Source: Xanthobacteraceae bacterium
Lineage (GTDB): Bacteria > Pseudomonadota > Alphaproteobacteria > Rhizobiales > Xanthobacteraceae
NCBI GenBank assembly: GCA_028290465.1
Contig: JAQGJU010000100.1
Location: forward strand, 1-28,449
Direction: 5' to 3'
Length of the DNA: 28,449 nucleotides
This document shows, piece after piece, positions 4,405 to 21,919 of the stretch (the first letter of the stretch is position 1; the number at the start of each line of letters is the position of its first letter). The position numbers and the translations under genes are program-made. The notes under the pieces were generated by a model, which made no database searches, was not told the origin of the DNA, and saw nothing but the letters and a program-made list of their open reading frames with translations.

Positions 4405-5640
4405 ATGACGACCTTGACCGACAGCGCGACCGACGCGGACGAGCAGGCACGGGTGCGTTCAATTGCGTTCCTGAACTGGGCGCATGCCATCGACCACTAT
4501 GTGATCCTGATCTTCCCGACTTTGGTGATCGGACTGCAGGTGATCTATGGCCGCTCCTATGCGGAGATGATCGCGCTCGGCACCGCGTCGTTCGTTGCGT
4601 TCGGCGTGTTCTCGCTGCCGGCCGGCTGGCTGGCCGACCGTTGGAGCCGGCGCAACATGATGGCGCTGTTTTACTTCGGCTGCGGCGGCTCGCTGGCATT
4701 GGCCGCGTTCGCACCCAATCTCATTCTGCTGGCCGCCGCGCTGTTTCTGTTGGGCGTGTTCGCGGCGATCTATCACCCGGTCGGCATGCCGATGCTGATC
4801 GCGGCCGCGACCAGCCGTGGCCGCACGCTGGCGTTCAACGGCGTGTGCGGCAATGTCGGCGCGGCGCTCGCGGCCGGCATCACGGCGGCGCTGGCGACGT
4901 GGTTCGGCTGGCGCGCAGCGTTCCTGGCGCCGGCAACGCTGTGCCTCGTAACCGGCGTATTGTATCTGCGCATGGTGCCGGATGACGGGCACAAGACCGC
5001 AAGCCGCAGCCAGCAGGCCGACGTGCCGCTCAGCATGCACGTGATGGCGACGATGTTCGGCCTGTTCATCGTGATCGCGCTGTCGGCCGGTCTCGTCTTC
5101 AACATCATTTCGGTGGCGCTGCCGAAGATCGTCGACGAACGGATCGGCGAGAACATGCCGCTGCTACTGGTCGGCGGCGTCGCCACCGCGGTGTTCCTGT
5201 GCGGCGCGCTGGCGCAGCTCGCGATGGGCCGGCTGGTCGAAAAATTTCCGCCGCACTGGTTATTCGCCGGCGTGGCGGCGCTGCAGTTCGCCGGCGTGTG
5301 GTGGGCGGCCCATACTGGCGGCCTGACGTTGCTGCTGGCGCTCGCCGTGTCGATGGCCGCGATCTACGGGCAGGTGACGGTGAACGACGTGGTGATCGCG
5401 CGCTACACCGCGGACGCCTGGCGCGGGCGCGTTTATGCCGTGCGCTATTTCCTCACCTTCGTGTCATCCGGCGCCGCCGTGTCGGCGATCGCGTTCCTGT
5501 ACAGCCGCGGCGGCTTCGATCTGGTGCTCGGAACCACGGCGTTCCTGGCGCTCGGCTTCGTGGTGGCGACCGCCGCCGTCGCGGTGCTGGTGACCGGCGT
5601 TGAAAAGCGCCGGGCGCGGAACTTGCAGGCGGTGGAGTAA
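4405..5640 (+). CDS. MFS transporter
   Basis: The 411-aa product has about 12 predicted TM helices. MFS-like motifs include GWLADRWSRR between TM2 and TM3. It is divergent from the AraC gene. Confidence 0.8.
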   Translation: MTTLTDSATDADEQARVRSIAFLNWAHAIDHYVILIFPTLVIGLQVIYGRSYAEMIALGTASFVAFGVFSLPAGWLADRWSRRNMMALFYFGCGGSLALAAFAPNLILLAAALFLLGVFAAIYHPVGMPMLIAAATSRGRTLAFNGVCGNVGAALAAGITAALATWFGWRAAFLAPATLCLVTGVLYLRMVPDDGHKTASRSQQADVPLSMHVMATMFGLFIVIALSAGLVFNIISVALPKIVDERIGENMPLLLVGGVATAVFLCGALAQLAMGRLVEKFPPHWLFAGVAALQFAGVWWAAHTGGLTLLLALAVSMAAIYGQVTVNDVVIARYTADAWRGRVYAVRYFLTFVSSGAAVSAIAFLYSRGGFDLVLGTTAFLALGFVVATAAVAVLVTGVEKRRARNLQAVE

Positions 5641-5718: not shown

Positions 5719-6243
5719 CTATTTCTTCAGGTCTTGCGCCATCTGAAGATGCTCTTTCAGATGCGGCAGATGCTTGCTGGCGAATGCCTTGAGCGCCGGA
5801 TTGTCGCCGCCATTGGCGTAGCGCTCGAACATGTTGACGGCGTCCTTGTGGGCGTCGATCTGATTGTCGTCATACATCTTGTCGAAGTCGCCGCCTTGCG
5901 CCGCTTTCAGCTTGTCGAGCTTGCTCTGGTGGGCGCTGTCCAGCGCCGCTGGGATTTCGGCCTTCACCTTGCCGCCCTGCACCAACGATTTCAGCTCGGT
6001 GGAGGTTTCGGTGTGATCCTTGATCATCTTGGCCGCGAAGGTCTTGCTCTTGGCGTCGGCGCGAGTGTTCGCCAGCTTGCTGGATTCGATCTCGAACATG
6101 TCGCTGATCGCCGCCTGCTTGACGAAATCCTCGGTCTTGGGAGCGATGCCCAATGTCGAATTGACGCCGGTCCGTTCTGGAACCGATTGGGCAAAGGCCG
6201 GGGTGGCCAATAACACGGCCGTTACAAAAACAAATTTGCGCAT
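5719..6243 (-). CDS. DUF4142-domain periplasmic protein
   Basis: A Sec signal peptide MRKFVFVTAVLLATPAFAQ is followed by two helical DUF4142-like repeats (KDHTETSTELKSL... and DAHKDAVNMFERYANGGDNPALKAFASKHLPHLKEHLQMAQ). I chose ATG 6243, which has GGAG 9 nt upstream. The track's 6255 codon is TTG. Confidence 0.7.
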   Translation of the reverse strand: MRKFVFVTAVLLATPAFAQSVPERTGVNSTLGIAPKTEDFVKQAAISDMFEIESSKLANTRADAKSKTFAAKMIKDHTETSTELKSLVQGGKVKAEIPAALDSAHQSKLDKLKAAQGGDFDKMYDDNQIDAHKDAVNMFERYANGGDNPALKAFASKHLPHLKEHLQMAQDLKK

Positions 6244-6415
6244 GGCACGCTCCAATGTGAGAGATCAGATGCCATTAGAATGCGCTACGCCGTCCGGCGT
6301 TCCATTGCACCGGTTGGCTCCGCATATTTTTTAGGCTCGGCTGCGCCGGCTATGTGAAATGCTACATGTCGTTTGGGTGCAACCGGGCACCCGCAGCATT
6401 GCCGCGTTATCGGCG

Positions 6416-6868
6416 CTAAAACAACTTCGGCACCAAATTCTCGACCTTGACGCCGGTGCGTTCGCTGACGATCTCTGCGATGCGCTTGCGGTGGCAATGG
6501 CCGACATCTCGCTCGAAGCACAGCAGGCAGACCTCGCGGCCGGACTTCACCAGCGCGGTCAGCTCGTCGAGTTGTTCCTGTGCCGGCGGCGTCGCGATGT
6601 GCTGTTCGTAAATCCGCCACAGCGTATCGAGGTCGCCCTTGCGGGCGGCGTCGCGGCCTTCCTTCGGCGTGCCGAGCGCCCGCAGATGGATGTACGCGAT
6701 GCCGGTCTCGTCGAGACCGGCGGCAAGCTGTCGCTTTGAAAAGCCGGGTCGGCGCGAGGCCGCGACCGCCCTTGTGTCGACCAGCAGTTCGACGCCGGCG
6801 CGCTTGAGCTCGCCCAGCACGGCGGCGGACGTAGCCTGCTCATAGCCGATGGTGCGCAGCACGGGCAT
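6416..6868 (-). CDS. DUF488-family protein
   Basis: MPVLRTIGYEQATSAAVLGELKRAGVELLVDTRAVAASRRPGFSKRQLAAGLDETGIAYIHLRALGTP matches the DUF488 (YeaO-like) N-terminal pattern TIGHS..L..G...LVDVR..P.SR.P.F. A CAGGAG RBS sits 8 nt upstream. Confidence 0.75.
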   Translation of the reverse strand: MPVLRTIGYEQATSAAVLGELKRAGVELLVDTRAVAASRRPGFSKRQLAAGLDETGIAYIHLRALGTPKEGRDAARKGDLDTLWRIYEQHIATPPAQEQLDELTALVKSGREVCLLCFERDVGHCHRKRIAEIVSERTGVKVENLVPKLF

Positions 6869-7027
6869 ACCGGTAAGCTCCTGAAGCCAGGGGACGTAAC
6901 CTAACTAGCTACCGTCGCGGGCATTTCAACACCACGCACGCGTTGGAACAAAATTAACCATATGCGGGTTACAAGAACCGATGCGGCGCTTCACGGCGTC
7001 GACGAAGTGCGACCACGATAGGAAACG

Positions 7028-7085
7028 GTGACGCCGGATGTACGCGCACCGTGACCCATTCGTGGTCGTTGTCGTTTGGGGCTCT
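7028..7085. repeat. Copy 1 of a ~55-nt imperfect direct repeat (GGTGACGCCGGATGTA core)
   Basis: GGTGACGCCGGATGTACGCGCACCGTGACCCATTCGTGGTCGTTGTCGTTTGGGG lies immediately 3' of the DUF72 stop. It shares an exact 16-mer plus extended similarity (CGTGGTC-TT-CG-TTT-GG) with the locus at 10733..10790. Confidence 0.45.
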
Positions 7086-7087
7086 GG

Positions 7088-7903
7088 TTAGTTCCCAACC
7101 CGCTCAATCATCGCCATCGCGGCGGCCGGCGCGCGTACTTTCCCTTCATGGATGAAGTAGGCGAACACGTCGCGCGGCGCGGCCTTCGGCTTGTTTTTCT
7201 CGTCGACCAGCGGCAGGTCGGCGGGCGCGCCGCCCTTCGCCCAGGCCTGTAGACGCTCCGCCCATTGGTCGAGCGCTTTCGGCTTGTAGCCGGTCTCGAC
7301 CGTGTCTTCGCCCTTTTGCAAGCGCGCATAGATGAAGTCGCCGGTGATATCCGGGATCGCCGGATAGGTCGCGTGCTCGGAGAACACCACCGGCACCTTG
7401 AACTCGCGGAGCAGCGCGATGAATTCCGGCGTACAGAAACTGTCGTGCCGCACTTCGACGACATGGCGCAGCGCGCGGCCATCCAGCTTTTGCGGCAGCA
7501 GTTCGAGGAATGCGCCGAAGTCGGCGGCGTCGAATTTCTTGGTCGGCATGAACTGCCACAGCACCGGGCCGAGCCGGTCCCCCAGCTCCAGCACGCCGGA
7601 ATCGTAGAAGCGCTTCACCGAGTCGCCGGCCTCGGCCAGCACTTTGCGGTTGGTGGCGAAGCGCGGACCCTTGAGCGAGAACACGAAGCCGTCCGGCACT
7701 TCGCTGGCCCATTTGCGGAAGCTCTCGGGCTTCTGCGAGCCGTAATACGTGCCGTTGACCTCGATCGAGGTCAGCTTGCTGGCCGCGTAGGTCAGCTCTT
7801 TCTTCTGCGCCAGGCCCTCGGGATAGAACACCCCGCGCCACGGCTCGAAGGTCCAGCCGCCGATGCCGACGCGGATATGCGCCGCAGCCTTTTTCGTGGT
7901 CAT
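7088..7903 (-). CDS. DUF72-family protein (YecE-like)
   Basis: MTTKKAAAHIRVGIGGWTFEPWRGVFYP matches the characteristic DUF72 N-terminus (G.SGW.Y..W...FYP). The 271-aa product is co-directional with the adjacent DUF488 gene. Confidence 0.8.
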   Translation of the reverse strand: MTTKKAAAHIRVGIGGWTFEPWRGVFYPEGLAQKKELTYAASKLTSIEVNGTYYGSQKPESFRKWASEVPDGFVFSLKGPRFATNRKVLAEAGDSVKRFYDSGVLELGDRLGPVLWQFMPTKKFDAADFGAFLELLPQKLDGRALRHVVEVRHDSFCTPEFIALLREFKVPVVFSEHATYPAIPDITGDFIYARLQKGEDTVETGYKPKALDQWAERLQAWAKGGAPADLPLVDEKNKPKAAPRDVFAYFIHEGKVRAPAAAMAMIERVGN

Positions 7904-8052
7904 GGCAGGACCTCGCGCGGCAATTGCGCTCGTACTGGCATCCGTTCCTGCATGGTGCTGTTAATCTCCCGTGAAGGTCCCATGAATAGCGTAACAGCCC
8001 TGTAGGTACCAGCAGGCCGGACCGTGCGTCCGGGCCTGGTTTGGGTTGTTGC

Positions 8053-8712
8053 ATGAATATCAGTCCCGTCAGCGCGAGTGCGTCCAGCCAGCTATTGCAG
8101 CGGGTGTTCAAGCAGGCTGACAGCGACGCCAGCGGCGGCATATCGAGCGCCGAACTGACCTCGGCGAGCGGTTCCGGCGCCTCATCGACCGATGTGACGG
8201 CCCTCTTCAAAAGCGCGGACAGCAGCAGCGACGGCCGGATTTCCGCCCCGGAACTCAAGTCGGCATTCGACAATATGTCGACCGAAATGCAGAGCGCCCT
8301 GATCAGCGCGCAGGAATCTGCCACGTCCGCAGCCGATACCCTGAAAGCCCTCGCCGAGAGCACGGCCGCCAATGCCGGCATGGCCGGCATGGTGAGCAAC
8401 GGAACGCCGGTTCAAGGCGAACCTCCTGCCCAAGGCGCGCCTCCGGCCCGCCCGGCGGGCGGCGGCGGCGGCGGTGGTGGTGGCAAGACGGAAGAGGCCG
8501 ATCCGGCCGACGCTAACGGCGACGGCGTCGTCACCGCGTCGGAGCAGGCCGCCTATGACAGCAGCCAAGGTGCGGGATCGACAACCAGCACGTCGACTAC
8601 CACCAGTGCCACCGACCAGGCCGACGCTACCGACAGCGCCAAGTCCGCAACAGCCGCTTTGGCAACAAAAGCACTGGCGACAAAAACCGCTTATGCGAGC
8701 CTGACGGCCTGA
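8053..8712 (+). CDS. Acidic low-complexity protein with three EF-hand Ca-binding loops
   Basis: Three canonical 12-residue EF-hand loops are present: DSDASGGISSAE, DSSSDGRISAPE and DANGDGVVTASE. The rest is S/A/T/G-rich, with a Gly9 tract encoded by (GGC)4(GGT)3GGC. The track start at 8041 is TTG, so the first ATG at 8053 is used. There is no N-terminal signal peptide. Confidence 0.6.
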   Translation: MNISPVSASASSQLLQRVFKQADSDASGGISSAELTSASGSGASSTDVTALFKSADSSSDGRISAPELKSAFDNMSTEMQSALISAQESATSAADTLKALAESTAANAGMAGMVSNGTPVQGEPPAQGAPPARPAGGGGGGGGGKTEEADPADANGDGVVTASEQAAYDSSQGAGSTTSTSTTTSATDQADATDSAKSATAALATKALATKTAYASLTA

Positions 8713-9005
8713 TCGGGGTCGCGTTGCCGTCTTGGTTGGCGATTCATCGCGAAATAAAACGCGGTGCATCATCATCACGACGGATATTTTCGTGCGCGGT
8801 TGGTGCGCGGCACTCATATTTAATTGCTTTTTCGCACACGGGCCGTTTGGCCTCTTGCGCTCAAGTTCCGTTTGCATCATAAGCCGCGTCCTTCGCGAGG
8901 CCATGTGTCCGGGCTCGATGAGACCCGGCTGGCGCGGGCCGCTCTGCGGCTTCGTGTTCCGCCAAACGGAGACGATCATGCTTATGCCAAGCATACGATC
9001 ACACT

Positions 9006-9081
9006 GCGAGGATAGCTCAGTGGTAGAGCAGATGACTTGTAATCATCGTGACGCGGGTTCGAATCCCGTTCCAACGCTCCG
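9006..9081 (+). tRNA. tRNA-Thr(UGU)-like gene with aberrant acceptor stem (possible pseudogene)
   Basis: The hand fold gives D-arm GCTC-AGTGGTA-GAGC, anticodon arm GATGA-CTTGTAA-TCATC (anticodon TGT) and T-arm GCGGG-TTCGAAT-CCCGT. However, the 5' acceptor GCGAGGA faces a 3' strand TCCAACGC. That gives six Watson-Crick pairs plus an A-A mismatch and a one-nucleotide bulge. I confirmed the bases through the overlapping track ORF translation (..NPVPTLRF..). Confidence 0.6.
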
Positions 9082-9401
9082 GTTCAGCCTGAAAAGCTGA
9101 CTCCCATTGCAGGGGACCGGACGCGCGCTTCAGTCGCGGTCCGGCCGACTTGCCGCAAGGCTCTTCGCTCGTACCAACACACTGTGAGACCGGCTCTGCG
9201 CCGGGGCGGATACCGCCTGCGCGGACGTCAGGCTCGCCGTTCGGCCGCGCGCTTCGGCGTGCGATCGCACGCGTGCGCCTGCCGTCCCGCGAGCTAAAGC
9301 CCTAGCCCGTCCGTCTGACAGGAAGCCGTGTCCGGTCACCCATCCTCGATCTGAAGCACGCTGTCCGCAATCCCGCGGCCGGCCAACGATGGAGATGTGT
9401 C

Positions 9402-10553
9402 ATGACCCGGCACCTGTTGATGCTGCGCGTGACGGTGAAGGACGGCCAGCGCGCCCTCCTGACGCGCAACGGACAGTTCGAGCGTGTGCTCGAGCCGGGC
9501 CGGCACCGTCTGTTCGACCCGGCGCATGCGCGTGCGGTCGAGGTGTACGACGTCGTCCGTGCCGAATTCCCGGCCGAGCGTCACGCCGTGCTGATGACGG
9601 CGAAGCCGCAGCTCGCGGCCGAGCTGTTCGAGGTGGTCGAGACGAAGGCGGATGAACTCGCCATCGTCAGCCTCGACGGCCGTCCGACGCATCTGATGGC
9701 GCCGTGGCAGAAGCGCGTGTTCTGGAAGGTCGCGACCCGTGTCGATGTCGAGCGCATCGATGTGGCGGTCGACCCGAAGGTGTCCGCGCGCCATCTGACG
9801 ATGATCGTGCGCGAGCGCAACACGCTCGCGGCCGAGCATGTTGTTGAGAACCACGAGGCCGGTCTGCTCTTCGTCGAGGGCCGTCTGGTCGAGCGGTTGG
9901 CGCCGGGCCGGCATGCGTTCTGGACGGTCGGCCGCAAGATCGAGGTCAAGCGCCTCGACCTGCGTCCTCAGGCGCTCGAGATCACGGCGCAGGAGATGCT
10001 GACCAAGGACCGCATCGCGCTGCGGGTGACGCTCACCGCGTTTCGCCGGATCGTCGATCCGGAGCGGGTGGTGAGCACGGTGCCGGACGTGGATGCTTGG
10101 CTGTACCGGTTGGTGCAGTTCGCGATCCGCGAGGCGGTCGCCGGCCGTACGCTCGACGAGGTGCTGGCGGCCCGCAACGTGCTCGACGCGGAGCTTCGCG
10201 CCTATGTGCGCGAGCGCATCGCGGAGACCGGCCTCGAGGTGACGGAGCTCGGCGTAAAGGATGTGATCCTGCCCGGCGAAATCCGCGAGCTCGTGAACAA
10301 GGTGGTGGAGGCGGAGCGGACGGCGAAGGCCAACCTGATCCGCCGCCAGGAAGAGACCGCGGCGACGCGTTCGCTTCTGAACACCGCCAAGCTGATGGAG
10401 GACAACCCGCTTCTCCTGCGGCTGAAGGAGCTCGAGTCGATCGAGCGGATGGTCGAGAAGGTCGGCCGCATCGATCTCCACGCCGGGGACGGCGCGGGCC
10501 TCGATGCGCTACTGACCGGCCTGGTGCGCGTCAAGGCGCCCCAGGCGGGCTGA
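9402..10553 (+). CDS. SPFH/band-7 (slipin-like) domain protein lacking an N-terminal TM helix
   Basis: An SPFH core (EITAQEMLTKDRIALRVTLTAFRRIVDPERVV...) is followed by a coiled-coil C-terminus (AERTAKANLIRRQEETAATRSLLNTAKLMEDNP). The motif G-x-F-E-R-V/L-L-E/A-P-G-R-H occurs at aa ~24-36 and again at ~160-172. A GGAG RBS is present. The 381-aa minus-strand ORF here is a shadow. Confidence 0.8.
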   Translation: MTRHLLMLRVTVKDGQRALLTRNGQFERVLEPGRHRLFDPAHARAVEVYDVVRAEFPAERHAVLMTAKPQLAAELFEVVETKADELAIVSLDGRPTHLMAPWQKRVFWKVATRVDVERIDVAVDPKVSARHLTMIVRERNTLAAEHVVENHEAGLLFVEGRLVERLAPGRHAFWTVGRKIEVKRLDLRPQALEITAQEMLTKDRIALRVTLTAFRRIVDPERVVSTVPDVDAWLYRLVQFAIREAVAGRTLDEVLAARNVLDAELRAYVRERIAETGLEVTELGVKDVILPGEIRELVNKVVEAERTAKANLIRRQEETAATRSLLNTAKLMEDNPLLLRLKELESIERMVEKVGRIDLHAGDGAGLDALLTGLVRVKAPQAG

Positions 10554-10732
10554 CACGAAGAGGGGTCGCCGCGCGGCGGCCCCTCATGCGTCACACGCGG
10601 TGTATGACAATCGAACTGGCGCCCGGGCCTCATGTCATCGACGTGTCATGTTGGTATGCGAAACACTGCGCGTCGACCGGTCCATGCACGCCCCCAGGCG
10701 CAGCCACCGGTCGCAGGCCACGATCTGACTCA

Positions 10733-10790
10733 GGTGACGCCGGATGTAAGCGCGCCTGTTTCAGGTGCGTGGTCTTTCGCGTTTAGGTAC
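10733..10790. repeat. Copy 2 of the ~55-nt imperfect direct repeat (GGTGACGCCGGATGTA core)
   Basis: GGTGACGCCGGATGTAAGCGCGCCTGTTTCAGGTGCGTGGTCTTTCGCGTTTAGG. I anchored the coordinates by the overlapping track ORF translation (..GDAGCKRACFRCVVFRV*). Confidence 0.45.
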
Positions 10791-10829
10791 TGACGTCGCG
10801 GTCATCAGGCCACTTGCAGCATTTGTTCC

Positions 10830-10941
10830 GTCATCCTGAGGCGCCCGGCGTAGCCGGGCCTCGAAGGATAGACGGCCCCGATTTGCAACGCCTCGGCTGT
10901 CATCCTTCGAGGCTCGCTTCGCTCGCACCTCTGGATGACGG
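10830..10941. repeat. REP/BIME-like nested-palindrome repeat, family A (GTCATCCTGAGG...CCTCGAAGGAT...GGATGAC)
   Basis: The terminal inverted repeats are GTCATCC and GGATGAC, and the internal inverted pair is CCTCGAAGGAT and ATCCTTCGAGG. Its 'ORF' (RHPEVRAKRASKDD...SFEARLRR) is the typical spurious translation of this Bradyrhizobiaceae repeat family. Confidence 0.6.
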
Positions 10942-10984
10942 ATTAATGCTTCGGCTCGACTTATATTTGCATCACCCAATAGCA

Positions 10985-11012
10985 AAAGGCCCGGGCTTGC
11001 GCCCGGGCCTTT
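10985..11012 (-). terminator. Rho-independent terminator of groEL
   Basis: On the minus strand, AAAGGCCCGGGC-GCAA-GCCCGGGCCTTTTGCTATT begins 28 nt after the groEL stop. It is a GC-rich 12-bp stem followed by a T-tract. Confidence 0.75.
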
Positions 11013-11040
11013 CTTATTCTCGACGTCGGGTCGAATGGAC

Positions 11041-13192
<2,152 letters not shown>

Positions 13193-13946: not shown

Positions 13947-13999
13947 GCGATGCCAGTCGTCGGAGAGTGCGCCGCCGCTCTGACCCGCTTTGTTCTCAG

Positions 14000-14086
14000 T
14001 CATGGCCGGGCTCGTCCCGGCCATCCACGTCTTGCTTATGGTCAGATCATGAAGACGTGGATGCCCGGCACAAGGCCGGGCATGAC
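14000..14086. repeat. REP/MITE-like palindromic repeat, family B (two inverted ~35-nt units GTCATGSCCGG...CATCCACGTCTT)
   Basis: GTCATGGCCGGGCTCGTCCCGGCCATCCACGTCTTG and, after a 17-nt spacer, AAGACGTGGATGCCCGGCACAAGGCCGGGCATGAC. Its translation (KTWMPGTRPGMT) is the typical spurious ORF of this repeat family. It sits between usg and the Bug/TctC gene. Confidence 0.6.
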
Positions 14087-19657: not shown

Positions 19658-21919
19658 CTACCCGGCCAGCGACATCGGATCGCTGAGCACCGGCTGCGCC
19701 GACGCGACGCCGGATATGCGCAGGGTGATCTGCTCGGGCGCCACCGGGCGGCCGAAGCGATAGCCTTGCAGCGAATGCACGCCGGCGGCGCGCAGGAACA
19801 AATGCTGCTCGGCGGTCTCGACGCCTTCGGCCGTGACCTTCATGCGCAGGCCGCGGCCGAGGCTGACCACCGCATGGATGATGGCGGCCGCATCGGCGCC
19901 GCCTTCGATGCTGCGCACGAAGCTGCCGTCGATCTTCAGCTTGTCGAACGGGAAACGCCGCAGATACTGCAAGCTCGAATAGCCGGTGCCGAAATCGTCC
20001 AGCGCCAGCCGCACGCCGAGCGCCTTCAGGCGCAGCATCGCGGCCTCGGCGCTGTCGACATTGCCAAGCAGCGTGCTCTCGGTGACTTCAAGCTCCAGCA
20101 GGGTCGGATCGAAGCCGGTGTCGGCCAACGCCCGCTCCACCATCTCGACGAATTGCGGCCGGCGGAATTGCATCGGCGACACATTGACCGCCATGGTGAT
20201 GCCGGGCCACTGCCTGCCTTCGTGGCAGGCGCGGCGCAACACCCATTCGCCGAGATCGAAGATCAGCCCGCTATGTTCGGCGACCGGAATGAACTCGGCC
20301 GGCGACACTTCGCCGCGCAGCGGGTGGGTCCAGCGCGCCAGCGCCTCCAGGCCGATCACCCGCTCGCCGCTGGCATTGACCAGCGGCTGGTAGACGACAT
20401 GCAGCGCGTCGTTCTCCAGCGCCTCACGCAGGTCGTTTTCCAGGTGCTTGCGATGCGACAGGTCGGCGTCCATCGCGGCGTCGTAGATGCAGGCGCGGTT
20501 GCGGCCTTCGTTCTTCGCCCGGTACAGCGCCATGTCGGCATAGCGCATGATGTCGGCGGCGCTCTGCACGCGCTGATCGACGATGGCGATGCCGATGCTG
20601 GCACCGATCACGATGGTCTGGTCGTTGATCGCGTAGGGCGCACACAGCGCCGTGCGCATCCGGGTCGCGACGGTCTGCAATTCATTCGCGTCGAGATCGC
20701 CGGCCAGCAGCACCGCGAATTCGTCGCCGCCGAGCCGCGCCACCAGATCCTGGTCGGTGACCGTGCGGGCGAGGCGGAGCGTGACGTTGCGAATCAACTC
20801 GTCGCCGACCGGGTGGCCGAGCGTATCGTTGACGTCCTTGAAGTGATCGAGATCGATGTAGAACACCGAGGCGCCGGCTTCGCCGCGCCGTACTTCGTTG
20901 ATCACGCTTTCCAGCCGCTCGCCGAAATAGATGCGGTTGGGCAGGCCGCACAGCGGGTCGTGCAGCGCAAGGTGCCGCATGCGGTTTTCGCCGGCCGCGA
21001 TGGTGGCGGCGGTGCGCCGCATATAGCGCAGCACCAGGCCGACCAGCAGCATGAAGCCGCCGATCGCCACGGTGATGAACGGCACGATGCTGGCGACGAT
21101 TTCGCTGCCGGTGCGGGTCGGCGTCCAGGCGAACCGGCTGATCGGCAGGCCATGGCCGTCGACGACTTCATAGGCGAAGTCGCCGGACGGCAGATCGCCA
21201 TCCGCGACCTGCCGGAGGTTATGCAGTTGCAGACGGGTCGCGATGCCGGTCAGCACGTCTTCATCGATGAAGCGTACCACCAGCACGGCCGGTGCTGTTT
21301 TGTCGGTGCCGTCCGACGGCGCGGTGACGGCGACCGCGGCGACGATCGCCGGGCGGCCGACGAAGTTCTGCACCAGTGCGACGTGGGCGCGCGGCTTGCC
21401 GAGGCCGCCGGGCGCGGCCGCGATGCGGATGGTGCCGGTCGGCGCGGTTGCGGTGCGGCCGCGCAGATAGTCGAGCATGGGATCGAGGCTGGGGCGCACC
21501 GAGGCAAACAGGTCCGGCTCGATATTGCTGCGGCCGAGCCGCGCGTAGATCAGATGGTCCTGCGGATCGGCCACGAACACGTAGTCGTGGTCGAAATAGT
21601 TCTGCAGCCAGCGCCCGACGTTTTGTTGGACATAATCGCGATTGAAGCTGGTGCGGATATTGTCAACCGAAGCCGCCGTGGTGGCGACGCTTTCGACCTG
21701 CCGCAGCACGCCGGCGGCCTGCTCGGCGATCGCCTTGGTGAACAGTTGCTCCTCATGGGCCAGCGCGACCTGATCGGCGCGTTGCGCCGAGGTCAGCACG
21801 GCCACCACGATGCACGTAATCGCAAGCGCCACGATCACGCAGACCGGCGCTACGACGCTCAGGCGGGTCCGGTCCCACTCGAAGGGCCGACGCTTATCGC
21901 CGAGGGGCGAACTTGCCAC
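19658..21919 (-). CDS. Membrane-anchored sensor diguanylate cyclase/phosphodiesterase (periplasmic domain-GGDEF-EAL)
   Basis: TM1 (aa ~20-45), a ~220-aa periplasmic domain, TM2 (IVASIVPFITVAIGGFMLLVGLVL), then a GGDEF domain (RLGGDEFAV) and an EAL domain (EALARW, DDFGTGYSS, KIDGSFV). It has a GTG start. The 734-aa plus ORF is an antisense shadow. Confidence 0.9.
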   Translation of the reverse strand: MASSPLGDKRRPFEWDRTRLSVVAPVCVIVALAITCIVVAVLTSAQRADQVALAHEEQLFTKAIAEQAAGVLRQVESVATTAASVDNIRTSFNRDYVQQNVGRWLQNYFDHDYVFVADPQDHLIYARLGRSNIEPDLFASVRPSLDPMLDYLRGRTATAPTGTIRIAAAPGGLGKPRAHVALVQNFVGRPAIVAAVAVTAPSDGTDKTAPAVLVVRFIDEDVLTGIATRLQLHNLRQVADGDLPSGDFAYEVVDGHGLPISRFAWTPTRTGSEIVASIVPFITVAIGGFMLLVGLVLRYMRRTAATIAAGENRMRHLALHDPLCGLPNRIYFGERLESVINEVRRGEAGASVFYIDLDHFKDVNDTLGHPVGDELIRNVTLRLARTVTDQDLVARLGGDEFAVLLAGDLDANELQTVATRMRTALCAPYAINDQTIVIGASIGIAIVDQRVQSAADIMRYADMALYRAKNEGRNRACIYDAAMDADLSHRKHLENDLREALENDALHVVYQPLVNASGERVIGLEALARWTHPLRGEVSPAEFIPVAEHSGLIFDLGEWVLRRACHEGRQWPGITMAVNVSPMQFRRPQFVEMVERALADTGFDPTLLELEVTESTLLGNVDSAEAAMLRLKALGVRLALDDFGTGYSSLQYLRRFPFDKLKIDGSFVRSIEGGADAAAIIHAVVSLGRGLRMKVTAEGVETAEQHLFLRAAGVHSLQGYRFGRPVAPEQITLRISGVASAQPVLSDPMSLAG

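Follow-up and report, generated by a model that had tools for sequence, protein, structure and literature searches.

Direct repeats in a Xanthobacteraceae contig are probably the 3' hairpins of two paralogous small RNA genes that have an apical module in common with ar35

The closest described relatives of the element studied here, a pair of direct repeats bracketing 3.7 kb of a Xanthobacteraceae bacterium contig (JAQGJU010000100.1 of assembly GCA_028290465.1; the 28,449 nt analyzed are called the window), are the ar35 (αr35) small RNAs (sRNAs). SmrB35, also named Smr35B or SmelB053, is a 139-nt primary transcript of pSymB of S. meliloti, which was verified by Northern blotting and rapid amplification of cDNA ends; it is expressed in the log phase, is induced about 4-fold by luteolin and was undetected in nodules (PMC2780559). 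The SmelB053 family is multi-copy and has three hairpins: a 5' one that varies or is missing, a middle one with the conserved loop motif GGAUGUA and a terminator (PMC3927594). The module of hairpins 2 and 3 was also described in 33 3' untranslated regions (UTRs), 29 of which follow cold-shock (csp) genes (Reinkensmeier et al. 2011; PMC3927594). SmelB053 was suggested to be a decoy for RNA-degradation complexes, but its function 'remains unclear' (PMC3927594). The wider sub-module was named αr35b by del Val et al. (2012), who reported, but did not display, its occurrence beyond the full-length sRNA (PMC3346310), and a 2020 review gave ar35 an RpoD/RpoH1/2 promoter type and listed no function for it (PMC7143759). 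The listed ar35 members are from Rhizobiaceae plus a single Ochrobactrum. Two other sRNA systems were used for comparison: AbcR1/AbcR2 (αr15), a tandem pair within one intergenic region (PMC7143759), and GsrN, a precedent for a general-stress (EcfG-dependent) sRNA in Alphaproteobacteria (Tien et al. 2018).

The exact 16-mer GGTGACGCCGGATGTA was found at two sites of the window, 7027-7042 and 10733-10748, both on the + strand, and there was no third site in the 28 kb with 3 mismatches permitted. The initial annotation had reported the 16-mer twice, as it indeed occurs, but had started the first copy at 7028. The similarity of about 55 nt that it described is real but too short, for it reaches further 5' and covers about 72 nt: between 7012-7081 and 10718-10787, 52 of 72 aligned columns are identical (72%), and 5' of this block the identity falls to about 50%. 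The block starts with CCACGAT (7013 and 10719) and runs to a GTTT tail (about 7081 and about 10787). The CCACGAT 5' of the 16-mer and a CGTGGTC 3' of it are mutually complementary and common to both repeats. The placement given for the two copies was accurate, as the stop codon of the DUF72 gene (7088-7090) lies 3 nt past the first copy and the second 16-mer begins 180 nt after the end of the SPFH gene at 10553. We conclude, with a probability of roughly 0.75, that each repeat is the 3' hairpin of one of two paralogous + strand genes, copy A and copy B, for a structured sRNA of about 110 nt. This gene call of two unannotated sRNA genes replaces the earlier mobile-element reading of the repeats.

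Homologs were collected by scanning one genome per bacterial species for the exact 16-mer. At least 120 loci were found, and the counts below are from the matches listed. About 48 loci were chance matches in unrelated phyla without flanking similarity, and about 72 shared the extended architecture (G/A)CGRCCACGR - N8-16 - GGTGACGCCGGATGTAMGCGCRCC - N8-16 - CGTGGYCGTT - N4 - TTTT. All informatively labelled members among the matches listed were Hyphomicrobiales or uncultured Alphaproteobacteria: Xanthobacteraceae metagenome-assembled genomes (in the GTDB sense), Pseudolabrys, Pseudorhodoplanes, Rhodoplanes, Beijerinckiaceae, Methylobacterium and Bosea. The family is thus widespread in Hyphomicrobiales and conserved among soil alphaproteobacteria; cultured carriers include Methylobacterium adhaesivum DSM 17169, M. 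soli YIM 48816, M. trifolii DSM 23632 and Bosea rubneri. Alignment of the loci revealed a second, more variable hairpin upstream of the repeat hairpin. The RNA thus consists of a variable 5' hairpin (hairpin 1), a long 3' hairpin that is the repeat (hairpin 2) and a U-rich tail, together about 110 nt. The 20 nt at the apex of the 3' hairpin are nearly invariant, with a U-G pair, a bulged A, three pairs and the 9-nt loop CGGAUGUAC.

The structure was supported by covariation. Among 55 homologs, none of them from the window, 90% of the cells were paired and 11 pairs showed double changes; the covariation score of this set was reached by 0 of 500 shuffles. In 33 model matches, which included the window copies and diverged second copies of other genomes, 94.9% of the cells were paired compared with 30-44% in slid controls, and compensatory (double) changes were present at 17 of 27 base pairs. 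All 10 pairs of hairpin 1 change on both sides across the family. A covariance model made from the 55 homologs of other genomes and containing no window sequence, R1, scored 77 bits for copy A (E 3.7e-20) and 52.2 bits for copy B (E 3.7e-13), a value inside the 45-69 bits spanned by second copies elsewhere. With filters off, no other R1 match in the window came near copies A and B; the reverse strand of copy A scored 18.9 bits. A weak full-length match at 21520-21610 (+), inside long open reading frames (ORFs), had 14.6 bits and E 0.017 and was taken as noise. Rfam gave no match at the repeats, either at gathering thresholds or at E<=10 on the whole region. Since a model trained on other genomes finds both copies with such E values, and the next match in the window stands at 0.017, the resemblance of the repeats is not due to chance, as the initial annotation had estimated; its alternative explanation, two copies of an uncharacterised small RNA, is supported by the covariance model, the covariation, the homologs and the synteny described below.

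The transcribed strand was determined as +: G-U pairs are frequent (at two positions of the stems, for example, they occur in 12 and in 10 of the 33 sequences), a U-rich tail is present, and R1 gave the two copies 77 and 52 bits on this strand but no more than 19 bits on the other. A minus-strand reading was rejected: in addition to the low score, the fold of copy B was weaker on that strand (z = -1.3, compared with -39.5 kcal/mol and z = -2.9 on +) and no U-tail was present.

The positions of both genes are given in the table below. The RNA of copy A would extend from about 6972 to about 7083. Its hairpin 2 has the apex GGUG-A-CGC[CGGAUGUAC]GCG-CACC at 7027-7050 and folds with -39.3 kcal/mol (z = -3.0), and the outer stem covaries in the family. 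Copy B, the start of which lies 107 nt past the SPFH stop codon, has the loop CGGAUGUAA, with 8 of 9 bases as in CGGAUGUAC, and the tail UUUCGCGUUUAGG at 10776-10788, directly after hairpin 2. A U-A pair of copy A is U-G in copy B and C-G in the second copies of other genomes.

Table. Features around the two sRNA copies. The eight called genes were checked by Pfam.
Feature	Positions	Strand	Basis or remark
MFS (major facilitator superfamily) transporter	4405-5640	+	Pfam
DUF4142	5719-6255	-	Pfam
DUF488	6416-6868	-	Pfam
Copy A promoter region	6945-6970	+	GGAAC 6945-6949, N17, GGTT 6967-6970
sRNA gene copy A	6958-7085	+	Full R1 match including -10 box, model positions 1-125
Copy A hairpin 1 (variable 5' hairpin)	6978-7005	+	R1 alignment
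Copy A hairpin 2	7009-7069	+	Outer stem GCGACCACGA/UCGUGGUCGU
Copy A U-rich tail GUUGUCGUUUGGGG	7070-7083	+	Inferred 3' end; CGUU-N4-UUUU conserved in homologs
DUF72	7088-7903	-	PF01904, E 2e-61; convergent with copy A
EF-hand protein	8041-8712	+	Pfam
tRNA-like element	9010-9072	+	Rfam tRNA 54.8 bits, model positions 5-66
SPFH/Band 7	9402-10553	+	PF01145; directly upstream of copy B
sRNA gene copy B	10660-10792	+	R1; more diverged paralog
Copy B 5' hairpin	10674-10713	+	Stem CGACCGGU/ACCGGUCG, 24-nt loop; R1 alignment
Copy B hairpin 2	10715-10775	+	Apex GGUG-A-CGC[CGGAUGUAA]GCG-CGCC
GroEL	11041-12690	-	Pfam
GroES	12875-13192	-	Pfam

We compared the family with ar35 in both directions. In small search windows Rfam ar35 (RF02346) was the best sub-threshold match, with 17.1 bits in locus L014 of a relative (L numbers denote loci of the homolog set) and 15.2 bits in copy A (7029-7049), and copy B gave no match to ar35 at E<=10. 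The ar35 gathering score of 45 bits was reached by none of the three, while three true ar35 genes of Rhizobium and Ensifer plasmids scored 83-127 bits. The top R1 match in each of these three true loci was exactly the apex of ar35 hairpin 2, which reads UGAC-CA-CGGAUGUAC-UG-GCA in ar35 and UGAC-GC-CGGAUGUAC-GC-GCA here; nothing else aligned. Both groups are Hyphomicrobiales sRNAs of 110-140 nt, chromosomal or plasmid-borne, with a variable 5' hairpin, a tendency to more than one copy and an RpoD-type promoter, present in the new family as a motif in most homologs. They have the same apex, namely the U-G pair, the bulged A, three pairs and the 9-nt loop, and copy A carries the bulged-A stem with GGAUGUA that characterises hairpin 2 of ar35 and SmelB053; at the two inner pairs, the C-G/A-U of ar35 is replaced by G-C/C-G, a compensatory swap. 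However, the three hairpins of ar35 are not all found, because the separate GC-rich Rho-independent terminator (ar35 positions 104-143) is absent from the new family, in which hairpin 2 leads straight into the U-rich tail. In sequence, the new family is unrelated to ar35 in its outer stem (GGCCACG/CGUGGCC), its 5' hairpin and its promoter, and the families also differ in lineage (Xanthobacteraceae and Methylobacteriaceae here) and in synteny (MFS...groESL). Since the scores are below the ar35 threshold and the third hairpin is missing, the family was treated as a related two-hairpin variant that appears to have the ar35 apex module in common, and not as ar35 itself.

The αr35b and csp 3'-UTR modules are similar to the new family in that hairpin 2 is wider in the order than the full-length sRNA and the 5' hairpin is variable or missing. 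The csp modules are sometimes an mRNA 3' end, which may also hold for copy B after SPFH. Compared by description, these modules differ in that they are defined with hairpin 3 and mostly follow csp genes, whereas the new family has no hairpin 3. A csp gene was present in only 2 family loci, in neither case upstream on the same strand.

Gene orders were determined by tblastn of the window proteins against the oriented loci, combined with the R1 matches. The data showed the RNA gene in one orientation between the MFS gene (+) and groEL-groES (-) in 35 or more species-level genomes. It is usually single in this neighbourhood, and DUF488, DUF72 and SPFH are variably present on either side of it. 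Among the relatives we found the orders MFS, sRNA, GroEL; MFS, SPFH, sRNA, GroEL-GroES (L014, L043 and the closest relatives, L113 and L116); MFS, DUF488, sRNA, SPFH (L012, L045, L061); DUF488, sRNA, DUF72 (L030, L095, L040); and DUF72, sRNA, GroEL (L005, L062). SPFH(+) followed by the sRNA(+) was observed in L014, L043, L113, L116, L029 and L053. Because relatives have the intervening genes on either side of one copy, the repeats do not delimit an indel here.

Two same-strand copies flanking DUF72 (-) were present in eight other genomes (L011, L027, L053, L058, L071, L088, L094, L102), so that DUF72 is the gene between the two sRNA copies there too. The second copies of these eight genomes have diverged: their loop is mostly CGGAUGAAC, their 5' hairpin is different, and their stem reads GGCG/CGCC where the first copies have GGUG/CACC. 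Copy A is of the first type both by its position directly 3' of DUF72 and by its sequence. Copy B occupies the groEL-proximal slot and has GCGCGCC in common with the second type. The duplication must be old, because eight genomes already carry two diverged copies around DUF72; the repeat is a resident, old, duplicated gene and not an insertion boundary. In Methylobacterium the family is not tied to the groESL neighbourhood: at least 2 copies lie on different contigs in M. nigriterrae (L080/L120) and in M. soli (L090/L114), and four Methylobacterium plasmids (H21-H24) carry one copy each.

Promoter motifs were then compared among 71 homologs. An RpoD-type promoter, CTTGC[GA]-N17-19-[CT]AT.T, with a -10 box ending 55-65 nt upstream of the 16-mer, was present in 55 of the 71 (1.4 expected from shuffles). 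Copy A keeps a -10-like CATAT at 6959-6963, and its -35 reads CACGCG where the homologs have CTTGCG. Overlapping the CATAT, copy A has GGAAC-N17-GGTT, which is one mismatch from the EcfG consensus GGAAC-N16-17-CGTT. The strict form GGAAC-N16-17-[CG]GTT was found in 11 of 71 members including copy A (0.19 expected from shuffles), the others being L006, L010, L018, L021, L054, L055, L061, L062, L083 and L106, and the relaxed form was found in 13 of 71; the promoter closest to that of copy A is in L010. An EcfG-type motif that overlaps an RpoD-like promoter suggests dual or switched sigma-factor control in some lineages. The stress-type (EcfG-like) promoter of copy A, which we infer from the motif, is to be taken as a lead and not as a result. 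For copy B, no terminator-like site was found between the SPFH end at 10553 and the copy. Since copy B has neither a recognisable promoter nor a terminator separating it from SPFH, it may have lost its own promoter and be made as the 3' end of the SPFH transcript. The long 3' hairpin probably also ends transcription, because the U-rich tail follows it; a simple scanner gave terminator-like matches at copy A, all of them inner sub-hairpins.

Other explanations of the repeats were weighed against the sRNA genes. The hairpins could be cis-acting 3'-end modules, that is terminators or 3'-UTR stabilisers of neighbouring genes, with copy B as the 3' UTR of SPFH. Copy B lies 107-180 nt after the SPFH stop on the same strand, with neither a promoter motif of its own nor an intervening terminator; the succession of SPFH(+) and sRNA(+) is found in six relatives; and the 33 published 3'-UTR versions, 29 of them after csp genes, are a precedent. 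We nevertheless consider this explanation unlikely. Copy A and most homologs do not follow a gene on their own strand, and copy A is antisense to the DUF72-DUF488 spacer; a promoter lies at a fixed distance in 55 of 71 homologs; the covarying 5' hairpin would be needless for a mere terminator; the SPFH-adjacent copy keeps its own promoter in the relatives L014, L113 and L116; and no locus has a same-strand csp gene upstream. A small peptide starting at the AUG of the loop is hardly credible. Several homologs do read AUG UAC GCG CAC ... with a stop within about 10 codons. However, the variable region changes in length by non-multiples of three, the second copies alter the codons, and the AUG, which has no Shine-Dalgarno sequence, is enclosed in the loop of a conserved hairpin. 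This reading was rejected since neither the frame nor the stop is conserved and copy B reads AUG UAA.

Two further explanations involve mobility. The initial annotation had proposed att-like boundaries, here taken together with recombination scars, of an old integrated element with DUF72, the EF-hand gene, the tRNA-like element and SPFH as its content, which would agree with the direct repeats around 3.7 kb containing a degenerate tRNA-like element and with the variable gene content of the neighbourhood among relatives. This proposal now seems highly improbable, because the repeat is a conserved structured RNA gene that is resident in at least 35 genomes and is single, in the same place and in the same orientation in most relatives. 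The synteny check that had been suggested for the segment gave no indel, as relatives with one copy have DUF72, SPFH and the tRNA or tRNA-like element to either side of it; within the segment of the window, the tRNA-like element is not at an end, and it is itself conserved upstream of SPFH in relatives; and no integrase or other mobility gene was identified among the ORFs of 5.7-13.3 kb by Pfam on the eight called genes. A recent target duplication is likewise contradicted by the strong divergence of the second copies in eight genomes (loop and 5' hairpin). A dispersed, possibly mobile repeat (like repetitive extragenic palindromic (REP) elements or miniature inverted-repeat transposable elements), with two copies in the window by happenstance, is very unlikely as well. 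Relatives of the module are multi-copy in Rhizobiaceae, in up to 4 places per replicon and on many plasmids, and have been reported beside mobile elements (PMC3927594), and the Methylobacterium genomes with copies on two contigs and the four plasmids point the same way. As far as the data reach, however, the motif is not the high-copy REP that the initial annotation had considered: there are two copies in 28 kb and no more with filters off, most 8-kb loci hold one copy (one or two per locus) in a conserved context, and the contigs L014 (5.0 Mb) and L041 (3.1 Mb) occur once each among the matches listed. Position and orientation are conserved, and no terminal inverted repeats or target duplications were seen.

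Several observations weigh against the two-gene interpretation or its parts. Neither copy in the window has the complete RpoD-type promoter of the homologs, and no promoter motif was recognised upstream of copy B. The tail is GUUGUCGUUU or CGUUAGCAUUUUU, in which the U-run starts about 5 nt past the stem, and these 5 nt make the efficiency of termination uncertain. The 33-sequence alignment was fitted to the covariance model and is therefore biased in favour of the model structure. Since the 16-mer itself served to find the first copies, its invariance among them is in part ascertainment; only the second copies, copy B and ar35 support its conservation independently. Convergence could in principle account for the 20-nt module on which the link to ar35 is based. 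Searches for pairing partners of the loop were also unfavourable. Its complement was found 13 times in 556 kb of related loci, where about 12 are expected per 8-mer, without a recurrent site, and a 10-nt loop complement in the window's DUF488 gene is not kept in 8 orthologs of this gene.

The complement of the loop occurred at chance level in the window. The DUF488 site concerns GGATGTACGC, which is repeated at 6688-6697 (+) inside the DUF488 coding sequence (-), so that the DUF488 mRNA contains a perfect 10-nt complement of the sRNA loop; this is probably chance. CsrA-type binding to the GGA loop was set aside because there is a single site and CsrA is not generally known from this order. The consensus for CsrA from systematic evolution of ligands by exponential enrichment is reportedly RUACARGGAUGU.

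For the two sRNA genes, a mechanism can be proposed in which the paralogs would make an independently transcribed, trans-acting riboregulator with the invariant apical loop as its working surface. The apex would dock a protein, and the RNA would then titrate a factor that binds or degrades RNA, as a decoy or sponge of the kind suggested for SmelB053; alternatively, it would serve as a seed for base pairing or a kissing loop. Because the bulged A and the closing pairs are kept across families with otherwise different stems, the comparison speaks for recognition of a shaped hairpin (protein docking or decoy) no less strongly than for a linear seed for pairing. Copy A would be driven by the EcfG-like stress promoter, and copy B, without a promoter of its own, would be made as the 3' end of the SPFH transcript. 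Copy A could also act in cis on the DUF72-DUF488 spacer, to which it is antisense. A broader and speculative idea, which we think rather unlikely to hold as a whole, is that the bulged-A/CGGAUGUAC hairpin is an ancient order-wide module docking one cellular factor, that the free-standing sRNAs are stress-induced decoys titrating this factor, and that the paralog pair has two specificities. The factor might be a component of the RNA decay or of the cold/heat-shock machinery, and the module would be the one seen in the αr35 sRNAs, the csp 3' UTRs and the two-hairpin sRNA family next to groESL. Some decoy sRNAs would then be under EcfG control, like copy A, and the different loops of the paralogs (GUAC versus GAAC/GUAA) would provide the two specificities.

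Other known RNAs were also compared. GsrN-type EcfG-dependent sRNAs (Tien et al. 2018) are similar in that copy A and 10-12 homologs fit the EcfG consensus; in contrast, the new family has no sequence or structure similarity to GsrN and no C-rich 5' loop, and most of its homologs have an RpoD-type promoter instead. A neighbouring phyR-nepR-ecfG locus was not seen either, although no search was aimed at one. AbcR1/AbcR2 are likewise same-strand paralogs in one neighbourhood with a conserved functional module and an otherwise diverged sequence, but an opposite-strand DUF72 gene, together with three more features in the window, separates copies A and B. BjsR3 of B. japonicum, a Northern-validated sRNA the terminator stem-loop of which is conserved in Rhizobiales, proved to be a different RNA. 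Loci with the BjsR3 probe hold no R1 match, no family member was found within about 50 kb of it in L124-L128 (Bradyrhizobium-like metagenome contigs), and there BjsR3 ends in an unrelated plain terminator, AACGCCGCCC...GGGCGGCGUUUUU. A literature search with the literal sequences gave irrelevant matches only.

The tRNA-like element between the two copies has the anticodon loop CUUGUAA and is therefore of the UGU/Thr type; by eye, its acceptor stem pairs at 3 of 7 positions, and ARAGORN made no tRNA call on it. In 9 of 9 relatives examined, a tRNA, a tandem tRNA pair or an acceptor-truncated element lies a few hundred bases 5' of SPFH (placement checked for L014). These elements, of which the full-length tRNAs score up to 70 bits, are at L014 2498-2641, L113 4496-4636, L029 5711-5857, L053 3688-3833 and L012 1863-1935; further ones are at L045 6554-6625, L061 853-915, L043 3675-3745 and L116 7891-7955. 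Since such an element is conserved upstream of SPFH in relatives, the "defective tRNA" looks like a decaying resident tRNA gene and not like island cargo.

Three other structured sites were observed. A strong bidirectional terminator hairpin lies just after groEL at 10977-11044 (-) and gives a sub-threshold match to BjrC68, a Bradyrhizobiaceae sRNA (30.6 bits compared with a gathering score of 39), mostly in the terminator half. Between copy B and this hairpin, at 10817-10925 (+), there are two adjacent palindromic units, GTCATCC(T)GAGG...CCTCGAAGGAT(A)GAC, which by eye look like a dispersed REP-type element of the lineage. The longest inverted repeat of the window, at 13999-14086, has 35-nt arms that are 86% complementary and 18 nt apart (GTCATGGCCGGGC...GCCCGGCATGAC) and is probably another REP-like palindrome.

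The working covariance model and about 80 members define a conserved sRNA family missing from Rfam, with members in the Xanthobacteraceae, the Methylobacteriaceae and Bosea. The EcfG-like promoter in a subset of its members is a testable regulatory lead. The family extends the GGAUGUA hairpin of αr35/SmelB053 to new lineages and a new architecture, and the 20-nt apex, being the only part common to both architectures, is the obvious target for pull-down and mutagenesis experiments.

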